A DNA stretch of 6,055 nt from Escherichia coli. Its GTDB lineage: Bacteria > Pseudomonadota > Gammaproteobacteria > Enterobacterales > Enterobacteriaceae. The DNA is taken from assembly GCF_048403405.1 (NCBI RefSeq), contig NZ_CP183132.1. The stretch is one strand, 5' to 3'. A program made the position numbers and the translations under genes. The notes under the pieces were generated by a model. It saw only the letters and a list, made by a program, of their open reading frames with translations. It was not told the origin of the DNA and searched no databases. Below, piece after piece: positions 38 through 6,055 of this stretch (position 1 is its first letter; each line of letters opens with the position of its first letter).

Positions 38-144
38 TGTAAACGAAAAAACCGCCTTGCAGGGCGGTTTGATCGAAGGTTAAGTCAGCTTGCAGACTGC
101 TTAACCAGGTAACTGTCTTATGCGAGACGAGTCACCAAAATTGT
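38..144 (-). ncRNA. RNAI: RNA I antisense copy-number control RNA (about 107 nt)
   Basis: Minus-strand transcript complementary to the 5' end of RNA II. Its 3' end coincides with a GC-rich hairpin (ccgccctgcaaggcgg) followed by a T-run on the minus strand at about 46-70, i.e. an intrinsic terminator. Boundaries by analogy with the 108-nt pBR322 RNA I. Confidence 0.7.
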
Positions 145-1615: not shown

Positions 1616-3170
1616 GTTTCATGCCAGGGGAAAAGGTGGTGGCAGTGGTCCGGTTGATTACCTGCTGGGAAGGGAGCGTAACCGGGAAGGGGCAACGGTG
1701 CTTCAGGGGAATCCGGAAGAGGTCCGGGAACTCATCGATGCCACGCCATTTGCGAAGAAATACACGTCAGGTGTTCTGTCGTTCGCGGAGAAGGAGCTGC
1801 CGCCTGGAGGGCGTGAAAAAGTGATGGCGAGCTTTGAGCGTGTACTGATGCCCGGTCTCGAGAAAAATCAGTACAGCATCCTGTGGGTGGAGCACCAGGA
1901 CAAGGGACGGCTTGAGCTGAATTTTGTCATTCCGAACATGGAGCTACAGACCGGAAAACGCCTCCAGCCGTACTACGACCGGGCAGACAGGCCGAGAATT
2001 GATGCCTGGCAGACGCTGGTGAATCACCATTACGGTCTGCATGACCCCAACGCCCCGGAGAACCGCCGGACGCTGACCCTTCCTGATAACCTGCCGGAAA
2101 CGAAACAGGCGCTTGCTGAGGGCGTCACACGCGGGATAGACGCGCTTTACCATGCCGGAGAGATAAAAGGCCGTCAGGATGTGATTCAGGCGCTCACAGA
2201 GGCGGGGCTTGAAGTGGTCAGGGTGACGCGAAGCAGTATCAGCATTGCAGACCCGAACGGCGGGAGGAATATCAGACTGAAAGGAGCGTTTTATGAGCAA
2301 TCTTTTACAGACGGGCGCGGAGTTCGAGAAAAAGCTGAAAGAGAGAGCCGAATCTACAGAGAAAATGCTGAACGACGAGTTCAGGAAGCTCGAAGAATCT
2401 GTAAACAGGGAACTGACCTCAAACGAATCTTTAATCAGGAACGCTATCAACGACCATACAACAGCCCTGAAAGAACTGCTGGAGAGGTATCAGAAAACGA
2501 CCGTCGATACGATGGACGCGCACTGGAAAACCGTACTGAAAATGAGCGTGAAACGCTGGCTGTGGCTGATTATCGTCTCAGTACTGATGTTTGCCACGAC
2601 CGGGAGTCTGCTGTGGTACCAGGGCATGAAGATAAACGCGAATATGAATATTCTCCGCGAGCAGAAAGAGAGTCTGGAGAAGCTGAACGCGAAGACATGG
2701 GGCGTGCGTTATCACGAGGACAGCAACGGACGTTTTCTGGTGTTGCCGAAGGGGATGAAAGCCGAAACGAACTGGACGAAGGACAACGGCAAACTGAACG
2801 CAGTGAGACTGGTGCAGGAGTGACAGAGCATGACGGAGCTGGAAAGACATTTGCTGAACGCATTAGAGCAACTGCAACAGGACTATATGCAGCGGCTGAA
2901 CGAATGGGAGAACGCCTTCGTGGAATTGCAGAAAATGTTTTCGCTTACGCAACGGGACAACGCGATGCTGAACGGGCGAGTCATGCAGTTGAGTCAGCAG
3001 GTGCAGCACTTGAGCGAGCGGACAGAACGCTTGAGCCAGTTATACAGCGAGAACAGGAGATAAGGGATGAACGGCTGATGCAGGAACGCGAACATGAGTT
3101 ATCTCTGGAGCGGGAGCGTCAGCCGGAAATCCAGGAGCGGACACTGGATGGCCCTTCGCTGGGATGGTGA
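1605..3170 (+). CDS. mbeA: MbeA relaxase (MOB-HEN family), 521 aa
   Basis: N-terminus MIVKFHARGKGGGSGPVDYLLG... contains the catalytic Tyr19 and the HEN motif (H97, E104, N106 in ...WVEHQDKGRLELNFVIPN...) described for ColE1 MbeA. SD agggggcg lies 5-6 nt upstream of ATG 1605. The longer 537-aa ORF from 1557 is an upstream extension running through the end of mbeC. Confidence 0.9.
   Translation: MIVKFHARGKGGGSGPVDYLLGRERNREGATVLQGNPEEVRELIDATPFAKKYTSGVLSFAEKELPPGGREKVMASFERVLMPGLEKNQYSILWVEHQDKGRLELNFVIPNMELQTGKRLQPYYDRADRPRIDAWQTLVNHHYGLHDPNAPENRRTLTLPDNLPETKQALAEGVTRGIDALYHAGEIKGRQDVIQALTEAGLEVVRVTRSSISIADPNGGRNIRLKGAFYEQSFTDGRGVREKAERESRIYRENAERRVQEARRICKQGTDLKRIFNQERYQRPYNSPERTAGEVSENDRRYDGRALENRTENERETLAVADYRLSTDVCHDRESAVVPGHEDKREYEYSPRAERESGEAEREDMGRALSRGQQRTFSGVAEGDESRNELDEGQRQTERSETGAGVTEHDGAGKTFAERIRATATGLYAAAERMGERLRGIAENVFAYATGQRDAERASHAVESAGAALERADRTLEPVIQREQEIRDERLMQEREHELSLERERQPEIQERTLDGPSLGW
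2293..2823 (+). CDS. mbeB: MbeB mobilization protein (176 aa), nested in a different frame inside mbeA
   Basis: ORF with a good SD (aaggag, 6 nt upstream of ATG 2293) and one hydrophobic segment (WLWLIIVSVLMFATTGSLLWY). The nested position inside mbeA matches the ColE1 mbe operon. Confidence 0.8.
   Translation: MSNLLQTGAEFEKKLKERAESTEKMLNDEFRKLEESVNRELTSNESLIRNAINDHTTALKELLERYQKTTVDTMDAHWKTVLKMSVKRWLWLIIVSVLMFATTGSLLWYQGMKINANMNILREQKESLEKLNAKTWGVRYHEDSNGRFLVLPKGMKAETNWTKDNGKLNAVRLVQE
2830..3063 (+). CDS. mbeD: MbeD mobilization/entry-exclusion protein (77 aa), nested inside the 3' part of mbeA
   Basis: ORF immediately after mbeB, with SD aggag about 9 nt upstream of ATG 2830; its position matches mbeD of the ColE1 family. 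Product inferred from gene order and overlap, not from recalled protein sequence. Confidence 0.65.
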   Translation: MTELERHLLNALEQLQQDYMQRLNEWENAFVELQKMFSLTQRDNAMLNGRVMQLSQQVQHLSERTERLSQLYSENRR

Positions 3171-3232
3171 AACCATGAAAAATGACGTGTTCAGTGGATT
3201 AAGGCGGGCTAATGTGGCCTGTAGCATCTGGT

Positions 3233-3250
3233 TGCATAGGTATTCATGCG
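3233..3250. promoter_or_regulatory. Putative ArgR box within the cer accessory region
   Basis: TGCATAGGTATTCATG resembles the ARG-box consensus (TNTGAAT-4W-ATTCANA) with mismatches and lies about 100 bp upstream of the XerC arm, the expected position in cer-type sites. Confidence 0.4.
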
Positions 3251-3346
3251 GTTAAAATTTATCAGGTGCGATCGCGGCAGTTTTTCGGGTGGTTTGTTGC
3301 CATTTTTACCTGTCTGCTGCCGTGATCGCACCGAACGCGTTTTGGC

Positions 3347-3375
3347 GGTGCGTACAATGCGACGTTATGGTAAAT
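3347..3375 (+). other. XerC/XerD recombination core: GGTGCGTACAA (XerC arm) - TGCGACG (central region) - TTATGGTAAAT (XerD arm)
   Basis: Seen in sequence. Both 11-bp arms are identical to those I recall for ColE1 cer; the central region is different and 7 bp long here. Confidence 0.75.
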
Positions 3376-3465
3376 GGAGCGGATTTTCAGGAAGGAGTGA
3401 TACTAACAACTCGAACACTGTGCAAATAATGATTTTTTTAAAATATCGGTAACGATAATAAATTA

Positions 3466-3503
3466 TTTCGTTTTACGCCGGTAATAAATATAATGTAGTT
3501 TCA
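3466..3503 (+). promoter_or_regulatory. Candidate sigma70 promoter for the cargo operon (-10 TATAAT at 3489-3494; weak -35; AT-rich upstream)
   Basis: A perfect TATAAT hexamer lies about 50 nt upstream of ATG 3544 in an AT-rich tract (taataaattatttcgttttacgccggtaataaatataatg). No good -35 at 17-bp spacing; a second TATATA at 3505-3510 is also possible. Confidence 0.3.
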
Positions 3504-3543
3504 GTATATAAAAAAATATATGAGGTGTCTTGTGGGAGCTTTC

Positions 3544-4596
3544 ATGAATCTTCAACAACGTATAAATAAACTACCACAATTATCATCCAGTTTTTCATTT
3601 GGAAAAGATATTGATAATATTCATTCATTTATCTTTAACGAAACTTCTAAAGATAAAATTGAAGATTTACTAAGAAAATGGGTGTCAGGCAATCAGCCCT
3701 GTGTATTTGGTAAATTGGCAAGCAAGAAAATTAAAGGGCTTGATTTCCATTTATCTATTGTAAATAGCCCCCAACTATATAATGATGATGGTCATTTGTT
3801 TGATTTTTTGCGTAATGAAAGAGTTCGTTTTAAAGAACGCGCAAGAAGAGGAGAGGTCAGTGCGCATCTCATTTATTTTATTCATCCACAACTTGCCTTT
3901 GCTCGTCCATCAGAAGAGTTAGTGGACATACAAAAATATATTTGTTCGCTGCATATGCCAGAGTGCTATCCAATAAAAGAGGATGTTATTTATACTGAAA
4001 GCGTACCATTTCAGGATAAAGATGGGCTAAAAATATATAAGGCTGGTGTTAATGTTTTTTACTCTTCTGCTCATAGAACAAGAAATCATGATAGAAGAAT
4101 ACCAGGGGGAATACTTATTTCTGTAAATGCCCCGGGGCATTTTATGAGGCTGGCGATAGAAAAAGGTTTCTATAAAGATCAAGAACAAGCGTTAGCGGAT
4201 ATTCGTAACATGACTATTCAGTCTGTTGGTAAGGGTGGGTATTCACATCCGGAAGGGATTTCTACAACATGGCATTCAGAATCTAATTTGGATCGTTTTG
4301 GATGCCCAGTGCACACCGGTAATAGTTCTTATTACAGCGGTTTTTATCATACTGATGTATTAATTCCAGGAGAATTAACTAAGGATGAAAGATTGCTCCA
4401 TGAAATAGAAAATAGTGATCCAATGATCTTCAACTGGAATGTATTGTTTTATGTTTCATTAGAAGAGTTTCCTATAGATGATCCTTATTATGGAGAGTTT
4501 ATTGGTATTCCTGTAGATGATGCATCTATGTTTTTTAACTCCTTTCAACCAAGGAAATTTGAAAACAAACCCCTTTATGAGAAAGAGGATGATTAA
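3544..4596 (+). CDS. Hypothetical soluble protein, 350 aa, family not recognised (first gene of the AT-rich cargo operon)
   Basis: Long ORF (track 3520-4596) in AT-rich DNA. ATG 3544 is preferred over ATG 3520 because of the SD gggag 5 nt upstream. No signal peptide or hydrophobic helices evident. Conserved-looking segments include NAPGHFMRLAIEKGFY and DRFGCPVHTGNSSYYSGFYHTDVLIPGE. Confidence 0.75.
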   Translation: MNLQQRINKLPQLSSSFSFGKDIDNIHSFIFNETSKDKIEDLLRKWVSGNQPCVFGKLASKKIKGLDFHLSIVNSPQLYNDDGHLFDFLRNERVRFKERARRGEVSAHLIYFIHPQLAFARPSEELVDIQKYICSLHMPECYPIKEDVIYTESVPFQDKDGLKIYKAGVNVFYSSAHRTRNHDRRIPGGILISVNAPGHFMRLAIEKGFYKDQEQALADIRNMTIQSVGKGGYSHPEGISTTWHSESNLDRFGCPVHTGNSSYYSGFYHTDVLIPGELTKDERLLHEIENSDPMIFNWNVLFYVSLEEFPIDDPYYGEFIGIPVDDASMFFNSFQPRKFENKPLYEKEDD

Positions 4597-4597
4597 T

Positions 4598-5464
4598 ATG
4601 ATTAAAGGAATGCTTTTTGCTTTTTTAGCAGCGTTCTCATGGGGGGCAGCTATCGTAATGAGCAAAAAAGGAGTTGAAGAACTAGATGCCGGAGGGGTGT
4701 TTTTCTGGCAGATTTGTAGTGCAGTAATACTATCTTGGATAGTTCTTTTTATAAAAAGAAAAAAACTCCCATTAAACTCAAAAGCGATACTTGCTTATGC
4801 GACAGGCGTTTTTGAACCATTCTTAGCGTATACTTTTACACTCTACGGACTTTATTTTATTTCAGCAGGAAGCGCATCAATTATTTTTTCACTTGAATCA
4901 GTGTTTATATTGGTGTTGTCTGTTCTTATTTGCTCAGTTAAAATTAATTCCCCGCAATATTTTATATTGTTCCTTATAGGTGCAATTGTTGGCAGTATTT
5001 TGGTAGCCTTGCCAGACATCAGTAATGGATCGAATAATATTGTTGGATATTGTCTTGTTGTTGCCGGTGTGTTATCGGCAGCATTTTATGTTGTTATATC
5101 GTCTCGCCTTATTAAATCGTTTGAGCCTATCACATTATTGAGCGGACAGTTGACATTCTCCCTTATACTGTCATCGCTCTTTATTTTTATATCTAAATCA
5201 TCAATTTATCTTCCGTTGGAATCCGTGATTATTGTTTTTTCATCTGGAATATTACAATATTTTTTAGCTTTTTGTTTTTACTTGAACTCCTTGCGTTGGC
5301 TCCCAGTTCATTTGGCAGGGATAATGTTGTACTTTATTCCGCTAGTTGCATTATTTTTGTCATGGTTGTTTTTGGATGAACAATTCACATTCTTACAGGG
5401 GGTAGGATTTATTGTAACTGTGCTAAGTGTATATTTTCTTAACAGAAAATACTCAGAGGAGTAA
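4598..5464 (+). CDS. DMT-superfamily (EamA-like) integral membrane transporter, 288 aa, about 10 predicted TM helices
   Basis: About ten hydrophobic segments of 18-23 residues in a 5+5 arrangement, with an N-terminal LFAFLAAFSWGAAIVMSKKG typical of EamA-domain proteins. Start ATG 4598 has SD aagagga 8 nt upstream and lies 2 nt after the stop of the upstream gene; the track ORF from 4517 is an N-terminal over-extension. Confidence 0.8.
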   Translation: MIKGMLFAFLAAFSWGAAIVMSKKGVEELDAGGVFFWQICSAVILSWIVLFIKRKKLPLNSKAILAYATGVFEPFLAYTFTLYGLYFISAGSASIIFSLESVFILVLSVLICSVKINSPQYFILFLIGAIVGSILVALPDISNGSNNIVGYCLVVAGVLSAAFYVVISSRLIKSFEPITLLSGQLTFSLILSSLFIFISKSSIYLPLESVIIVFSSGILQYFLAFCFYLNSLRWLPVHLAGIMLYFIPLVALFLSWLFLDEQFTFLQGVGFIVTVLSVYFLNRKYSEE

Positions 5465-5633
5465 CATTCTGTTCAGGATTGCCCCCCGGCCTCCATCGAT
5501 ACCGTGCCAAATGCACGTAAAAAACGGGAGCGTTTCTGGTGTCGGAATGTAACCAAGGGGGTCAGAGGCGCGCTAAAACGCTCTCAGGGGAGTCAAATAG
5601 AGACGTTTGTAACAAAAAGATCAAAGGATCCTC

Positions 5634-5662
5634 TTGAGATCCTTTTTTTCTGCGCGTAATCT
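5634..5662 (+). promoter_or_regulatory. RNA II promoter, second copy of 3-31 in the terminal overlap
   Basis: Identical sequence at offset 5631. This copy shows the true context on the circle: the promoter lies about 170 bp downstream of the cargo transporter gene. Confidence 0.6.
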
Positions 5663-5668
5663 GCTGCC

Positions 5669-5775
5669 TGTAAACGAAAAAACCGCCTTGCAGGGCGGTT
5701 TGATCGAAGGTTAAGTCAGCTTGCAGACTGCTTAACCAGGTAACTGTCTTATGCGAGACGAGTCACCAAAATTGT
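5669..5775 (-). ncRNA. RNAI: RNA I, second copy of 38-144 in the terminal overlap
   Basis: Identical sequence at offset 5631. Confidence 0.7.
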
Positions 5776-6055
5776 TCTTCTAGTGTAGCCGCACTCCGGC
5801 AGCCACTTCAAGTACTCTCTAAATATCTCGCACATGACTTTTACCAATGGCTGCTGCCAGTGGCGCTTTGTGGTGTCTTTTCCGGGTTGGACCCAAGAGA
5901 ACAGTTACCGGAGAAGGCGCAGCAGTCGGGCTGAACGGGGGGTTCCTGCATACAGCCCAGCCCGGAGCGAACTGCCTAAGTCGCCCCGAGATACCAGAAG
6001 ACGTGAGCTATGAGAAAGCGCCACGTGTCCCGTAAGGGAGAAAGGCGGAAAAGGT
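5670..6055 (+). ncRNA. RNAII: RNA II, 5' part, second copy of 39-424 truncated by the window end
   Basis: Identical sequence at offset 5631. Confidence 0.65.

Follow-up and report, generated by a model that had tools for sequence, protein, structure and literature searches.

A Pcer/Rcd-like module in the cer-like site of a small ColE1-type plasmid from Escherichia coli

Results

Organization of the plasmid and the cer-like locus

The DNA analyzed here, referred to as the window, is a stretch of 6,055 nucleotides from Escherichia coli. It represents a circular plasmid that was read past its origin: positions 1-300 are repeated at 5632-5931, which gives a unit of 5631 bp. The plasmid is a common ColE1-type replicon. 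Its backbone genes encode Rop, MobC, the MbeA relaxase, MbeB, and MbeD. RNAI is located on the minus strand, and thus RNAII runs on the plus strand. The relaxase gene is followed by a cer-like site, and the cer-like site by low-GC cargo. A 271-bp cer query was 100% identical to the E. coli plasmid pS138-2 (OY754449.1, 5631 bp) and also to a Salmonella plasmid. JJ1886, JJ1887, and VR50 have 5631-bp plasmids in which the segment with the presumed promoter (Pcer) and the Rcd-like RNA was likewise 100% identical. The features of the window that are relevant for the following analyses are:

43-143, minus strand: RNAI (Rfam RF00106)
3165-3375, plus strand: cer-like XerCD multimer-resolution site (accessory sequences and core), from alignment with ColE1 cer; left boundary approximate
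3231-3248, strand not applicable: ARG box (predicted ArgR-binding site) GTTGCATAGGTATTCATG, overlapping the Pcer -35 hexamer and spacer
3232-3237, plus strand: predicted Pcer -35 hexamer TTGCAT, identical to ColE1 3795-3800
3253-3258, plus strand: predicted Pcer -10 hexamer TAAAAT, identical to ColE1 3816-3821
3265-3334, plus strand: predicted Rcd-like small RNA of about 70 nt, from homology to ColE1, fold, and covariance-model match
3265-3281, plus strand: 5' arm of the 17-bp outer stem, from inverted repeat, fold, and covariation
3316-3332, plus strand: 3' arm of the 17-bp outer stem, from inverted repeat, fold, and covariation
3286-3300, plus strand: conserved 15-nt motif CGGGTGGTTTGTTGC in the apical part of the hairpin, 14 of 15 positions identical to ColE1 AGGGTGGTTTGTTGC
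3340-3343, plus strand: short T-run TTTT, 8 nt past the stem, from reading of the sequence
3347-3357, plus strand: XerC-binding arm GGTGCGTACAA, identical to ColE1
3358-3364, plus strand: core central region TGCGACG (7 nt), outside the Rcd hairpin
3365-3375, plus strand: XerD-binding arm TTATGGTAAAT, identical to ColE1
3403-3430, plus strand: promoter-like CTAACA-16-AATAAT in the AT-rich DNA that separates the cer core from the cargo ORF
3520-4596 (RefSeq start 3544), plus strand: cargo gene 1, hypothetical protein of 350-358 aa (WP_001053268.1)
4517/4598-5464, plus strand: cargo gene 2, EamA/DMT-family transporter (Pfam PF00892, E = 6.8e-44)

The cer-like site

The window can be aligned collinearly with ColE1 (NC_001371) between the end of the mobilization region and the XerD arm; directly past this arm, the similarity collapses. 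An initial annotation of this DNA had described the accessory and core sequences as close to cer, and the collinear alignment as well as the identity of both Xer arms confirmed this description. The orientation of the site relative to RNAII is the same as in ColE1, and RNAI is encoded on the minus strand in both the window and ColE1. A query with the cer sequence matched 3867 PLSDB records.

The consensus of the ARG box is WNTGAATWWWWATTCANW, and its best match within 3200-3300 is GTTGCATAGGTATTCATG, with 13 of 18 positions. The TGCAT...ATGCA palindrome of the box was kept in 18 out of 18 cer-like sites. The box is located about 98-99 nt upstream of the XerC arm, and thus the sequence has the layout expected of a cer-type site, with XerC and XerD arms around a central region of 6-8 bp and an ARG box about 100 bp upstream. 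The central region differs from that of ColE1, as it comprises 7 nt (TGCGACG) instead of 8 nt (TTAAGGGA). The 7-nt version recurs in at least four other sampled plasmids with differing flanks, where it was found together with several different Rcd variants.

A conserved promoter upstream of the hairpin region

The hexamers of Pcer are separated by a 15-bp spacer (PMC5935869). The standard promoter scan admits spacers of 16-18 bp only and cannot see Pcer, and it was replaced by our own enumeration of promoter-like pairs. On the plus strand, only two pairs with 15-bp spacing were found, in ColE1 as in the window, namely TTGCAT-15-TAAAAT and a second pair with the -10 hexamer TACAAT inside the XerC arm. 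In the window, the pattern TTGCAT-N15-TAAAAT has a single occurrence (3232-3258, plus strand), compared to 0.00 occurrences expected by chance. The initial annotation had not placed the promoter with confidence and had named alignment with ColE1 as the way to check it; in this alignment both hexamers and the 15-bp spacer length turned out to be kept, with a single substitution within the spacer at 3247 (A in ColE1, G in the window). The -35 hexamer matches the consensus weakly (3/6) and overlaps the ARG box.

The positions of the Pcer hexamers in ColE1 were triangulated from secondary papers and from sequence tests. We took TTGCAT-15-TAAAAT to be Pcer on the basis of the hairpin, the conservation of the -10 hexamer, and the positions of the published 15-nt sequence, together with the location of the other -10 hexamer in the XerC arm. 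Of the two pairs, only TTGCAT-15-TAAAAT yields a 70-nt RNA that folds into a single hairpin. TAAAAT or TACAAT was present at the -10 in 13 of 18 cer-like sites, ColA and CloDF13 included, and of the two candidate -10 hexamers only TAAAAT is kept in ColA and CloDF13. Rcd has been reported to contain a conserved 15-nt sequence, proposed to be the site of target interaction, whose ColE1 version has 93.3% identity to that of ColA and 86.7% to that of CloDF13 (PMC5935869). All 15-mers that reproduce these identities are located at ColE1 3816-3862, and none of them lies near or beyond the core. Within the RNA body, the site of CGGGTGGTTTGTTGC is the sole one (ColA 14/15, CloDF13 13/15); the others overlap the -10 hexamer and the transcription start. 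CGGGTGGTTTGTTGC is thus a candidate for the published target-interaction sequence, its position being deduced from the identities. Taken together, TTGCAT-15-TAAAAT very probably is Pcer.

The second pair belongs to an alternative reading, according to which a promoter overlapping the XerC arm fires rightwards through the core and generates a transcript of about 3365-3434, which could be an Rcd-like RNA or a leader of the cargo genes. The interval of the initial annotation (3280-3400) corresponds roughly to this reading. Two plus-strand pairs, CGAACG-15-TACAAT (3332-3358) and TTGGCG-18-TATGGT (3342-3371), agree with the consensus at 7-8 of 12 positions. A precedent is the promoter of the EcoRI genes on pMB1, which overlaps the cer core and has its -35 in the central region (PMC7315355), and binding of XerCD would directly occlude such a promoter. 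However, the predicted RNAs are unstructured (z = +1.08 for the window and -1.16 for ColE1), they would extend into the region just past the XerD arm where the similarity to ColE1 collapses, and the published identities of the 15-nt motif are unattainable there. In addition, TACAAT is absent in ColA (GACAAC) and CloDF13 (GATAAG), for both of which Rcd homologues have been reported (PMC5935869). A -10 hexamer within the XerC arm is also hard to square with the finding that mutations in Pcer or rcd lower plasmid stability without affecting XerCD resolution (PMC4393325). We therefore regard a promoter within the core as the source of an Rcd-like RNA or cargo leader as highly improbable.

At the -10, a clade of small plasmids of Klebsiella and E. 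coli (L013-L017) carries TAAAAA in place of TAAAAT. The initial transcribed sequence of this clade differs as well, but the hairpin and the apical motif are retained. Judging from these sequences, Pcer of this clade may be weaker or differently placed.

The Rcd-like RNA and its predicted fold

Rcd has been described as a 70-nt RNA with a single stem-loop (PMC5935869), whereas an older citation gives a size of about 90 nt. The 5' end of the RNA in the window was placed 7 nt after the -10 hexamer and the 3' end according to the published length of 70 nt; the RNA may extend to the T-run at 3340-3343. If the older size applies, the 3' end would be at about 3354, which is still upstream of the central region. 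The plus strand of 3265-3334 is predicted to fold into a single long hairpin (MFE -43.6 kcal/mol, z = -8.56), and none of 200 shuffled sequences was as good. In the hairpin, an internal loop separates the 17-bp outer stem from a short inner stem, and the apical region carries the conserved motif CGGGUGGUUUGUUGC; the outer stem contains an inverted repeat of 16 nt (3265-3280 with 3317-3332). A terminator scan detected no site in 3100-3560, and no canonical intrinsic terminator was found 3' of the hairpin. The T-run is not a canonical terminator, but it may contribute to 3'-end formation.

The initial annotation had proposed an Rcd-like RNA within the cer-like site at 3280-3400. The proposed element is indeed present; the coordinates, in contrast, have to be changed, because promoter and RNA together occupy 3232-3334, about 15-50 bases upstream of the earlier placement. 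The interval 3280-3400 cuts off the 5' arm of the hairpin and takes in about 65 nt that do not belong to Rcd, namely the XerC arm, central region, and XerD arm of the core (3347-3375) followed by a non-conserved flank. When this interval was folded as an RNA, it was about equal to shuffled sequence (z = 0.00 for the plus strand and -0.89 for the minus strand). It had also been suggested that the altered central region may affect the RNA. This does not hold for the RNA itself, since a distance of at least 24 nt separates the hairpin from 3358-3364, which lies downstream of it and outside of the 70-nt RNA.

Comparison with Rcd of ColE1

The Rcd sequences of the window and of ColE1 are identical at 65 of 70 aligned positions, and all five differences preserve or improve base pairing. 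Relative to ColE1, C to U at 3267 is compensated by G to A at 3330, U to C at 3332 converts a closing G·U pair into a G-C pair, A to C at 3286 converts an A·G mismatch into a C-G pair, and an extra G at 3276 provides a partner for a C that forms a bulge in the fold of ColE1. Accordingly, the outer stem has 17 uninterrupted pairs in the window, whereas that of the ColE1 record contains a bulge. This comparison supports the view that the cer-like site keeps a Pcer/Rcd module that is homologous to that of ColE1.

The rcd gene is always transcribed in the direction of RNAII, and read-through of RNAII reaches ArgR/PepA first and XerCD afterwards (PMC2831885). In ColE1, RNAI is on the minus strand and cer is in plus orientation, as in the window, which places Rcd on the plus strand. 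The direction of Rcd thus equals that of RNAII, as the rule requires, according to the RNAI strands in the window and in ColE1 and to the G·U asymmetry described below.

The region could in principle encode a small protein, as the mechanical ORF list contains two ORFs on the plus strand, 3246-3452 (68 aa) and 3289-3429 (46 aa). However, no Pfam match was obtained, RefSeq annotates nothing at this position, and the ORF crosses the recombination core into the non-conserved flank. Moreover, ColE1 has a 1-nt indel inside the ORF, and the substitutions follow the paired RNA and not codons. The probability that a protein-coding gene explains the region is in our view practically negligible.

Covariation and strand asymmetry in 18 cer-like sites

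For a broader comparison, 18 cer-like sites with about 70-100% identity were aligned, the window among them. The alignment includes ColE1, ColA/pCfc1, CloDF13, the Yersinia plasmid pPCP1, and plasmids of E. coli, Salmonella, Klebsiella, and Enterobacter. When the 18 sites were placed on the MFE structure of the window, 93.8% of the alignment cells formed standard pairs, compared to 35-57% when the partners were slid by 1-3 columns. Double-sided changes were found in 13 pairs, 12 of which belong to the 17 pairs of the outer stem, with 94.8% of the cells paired. The covariation score was 0.426, in comparison to 0.06-0.14 in the slid controls, and it was reached by none of 500 shuffles. RNAalifold independently recovered the same outer stem. 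The apical 15-nt motif is nearly invariant across the 18 sites. The earlier expectation that an Rcd-like transcript may be conserved is thus backed, as far as sequences can tell, by the high identity to ColE1, by the structure-preserving character of the differences, and by covariation.

The strand of the RNA can be read from the non-canonical pairs. In the 18 sites, 76 cells are G·U on the plus strand, whereas only 2 are A·C, which corresponds to G·U on the minus strand. An RNA from the minus strand was rejected on these grounds. Covariation and G·U asymmetry together are the signature of selection for a plus-strand RNA, and not of a DNA palindrome or a symmetric protein-binding site.

These results also speak against the reading that the palindrome at 3265-3332 is solely a DNA-level accessory feature of cer, involved in PepA/ArgR wrapping, bending, or cruciform formation, and that no functional RNA is made. 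The palindrome is situated inside the accessory region of about 180 bp that is required for synapsis, a region whose conserved phased A/T tracts are said to promote curvature (PMC2831885), and the minus strand of the hairpin region also folds well (z = -6.1). Because cer DNA doubles as accessory sequence for the recombination synapse, part of the conservation concerns the DNA itself. However, the arms lack conservation in sequence and instead show covariation in 12 of 17 pairs, as is typical for base pairing and not for protein recognition, and 76 versus 2 G·U cells on the plus and minus strand would not be expected of a cruciform or a symmetric protein site. Furthermore, a conserved -10 hexamer is present at the right distance upstream of the palindrome, and the RNA of ColE1 has been documented experimentally (PMC4393325, PMC5935869). 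A DNA feature without any RNA is therefore very unlikely.

Covariance-model searches and distribution

A covariance model was built from the 77-nt alignment of the 18 cer-like sites. It yielded a single match in the window (3263-3339, plus strand) and none on the minus strand; the score of 98.8 bits was obtained by construction, as the window was part of the training set. As a control, 0.77 Mb of sequence was searched, including 99 of 120 loci that carry the 14-mer GGGTGGTTTGTTGC. This 14-mer had proven to be unspecific, because 116 of the 120 loci among the matches listed were due to chance, and these loci were reused as negative controls. In the 0.77 Mb, four independent cer-like loci scored 83-96 bits, whereas the next best match, a chance locus, reached 25 bits.

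The 83-96-bit loci are located on tiny contigs of Varibaculum cambriense (254 bp), Lentzea terrae (2.9 kb), and Pseudovibrio stylochi (1.27 kb), and on one of 471 bp (L114). The most likely explanation for cer/Rcd-like loci in non-enterobacterial assemblies is contamination by a ColE1-type plasmid or vector.

Copies of the 121-bp Pcer-Rcd segment with at least 80% identity are present in about 13% of the complete E. coli genomes (710 of 5426), all of them on plasmids and never on chromosomes. A megablast search with this segment matched 1082 PLSDB plasmids, 147 of them with at least 99% identity. Among the PLSDB/RefSeq matches listed, none carries an RNA annotation over the element, and one shows only an overlapping mobilization-protein gene. 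Searches of Rfam 15 with the cer regions of the window (3150-3500) and of ColE1 (3650-4000) gave only sub-threshold chance matches to miRNAs and leaders. As cer of ColE1 itself has no match, Rfam 15 does not contain a model for Rcd, and this negative result says nothing about membership.

Cargo genes and possible read-through

The product of cargo gene 1 has no match in Pfam, NCBIfam, PADLOC, or the PDB sequences, and tblastn found the gene in only 167 PLSDB plasmids, including copies of about 75% identity on plasmids of 100-140 kb. The product of cargo gene 2 is weakly similar to carboxylate and amino-acid exporters. The probable start of cargo gene 2 is not 4517 but the ATG at 4598, located behind the ribosome-binding site AAAGAGGA. 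The unknown protein and the transporter may form a small metabolite-export or immunity module. CTAACA-16-AATAAT is the best promoter-like site for the cargo and, as a match to the consensus, a candidate cargo promoter.

As the DNA from the Rcd hairpin to the cargo ORFs (3520-5464) lacks a canonical terminator, read-through from Pcer would be possible. Transcripts from Pcer might then pass the XerCD core and enter the cargo genes, and cargo expression would be tied to the multimer state or to XerCD occupancy. We consider this a long shot; if true, it would represent a coupling between cargo and multimers or XerCD that has not been described for cer sites.

Discussion

The evidence makes it highly likely that the cer site of the window is of the ColE1 type and that its accessory region harbors the known Pcer-rcd module. 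With respect to all testable features at the sequence level, the element is an ordinary member of the already known Rcd/Pcer family. According to the model for such modules, Pcer, with its sub-optimal 15-bp spacer and its overlap with the ARG box, would start transcription at about 3265 on the plus strand in the direction of RNAII and give rise to an RNA of about 70 nt that ends at about 3334 and forms one long hairpin. By homology with ColE1, Pcer would be silent in plasmid monomers, with FIS and XerCD implicated, and synapsis of two cer sites would turn it on in multimers. Neither the window nor ColE1 itself contains a match to the strict FIS consensus GNNYRNNWNNYRNNC. Rcd would then bind tryptophanase, indole would increase, and division and growth would be held until XerCD has resolved the multimers. 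Multimer-specific firing, repression by FIS and XerCD, binding to tryptophanase, the rise in indole, and the delay of division are known for ColE1 only, and a review states that the regulatory model of Pcer lacks experimental testing (PMC4393325). For the plasmid studied here, transcription, the exact ends of the RNA, multimer-specific expression, and an action via tryptophanase and indole are inferred.

Rcd is a classic plasmid checkpoint RNA with the unusual property of targeting a protein, yet Rfam has no family for it. The alignment and the covariance model show clear covariation as well as strand asymmetry and could be used as the seed of such a family. The importance of the finding lies mainly in annotation. 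The plasmid itself is equipped with the full ColE1-style stability set, i.e., cer with Pcer/Rcd, RNAI/RNAII, and Rop.

The closest known system is Rcd/Pcer of ColE1 (NC_001371, about 3795-3896), which shares the placement between the ARG box and the XerC/XerD core, the -35 and -10 hexamers, the length of the 15-bp spacer, the strand relative to RNAI/RNAII, and the single-hairpin fold. The two plasmids differ in their cargo, which consists of the unknown protein and the DMT transporter in the window and of colicin, immunity, and exclusion genes in ColE1. The Rcd homologues of ColA, CloDF13 parB, pRK2, pCS36-4CPA, and the Rahnella pHW plasmids have the same architecture and apical motif, and their hairpin is kept via compensatory changes. 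The window belongs to the ColE1-proximal clade, and its stem arms differ at most positions from those of the ColA, Klebsiella, and CloDF13 clades. With cer of pMB1/NTP14, which carries the EcoRI PR promoter, the window shares the ColE1-type plasmid and the location of cer directly upstream of cargo genes. However, in pMB1 the -35 of the cargo promoter (TTAAGG) sits in the central region of cer, whereas the central region of the window is devoid of TTAAGG. Lastly, RNAI and Rcd are both plasmid-borne, highly structured RNAs of about 70-110 nt with a role in plasmid maintenance, but RNAI has an Rfam family and regulates RNAII as an antisense RNA, whereas Rcd, without a family in Rfam, reportedly acts on a protein, tryptophanase.
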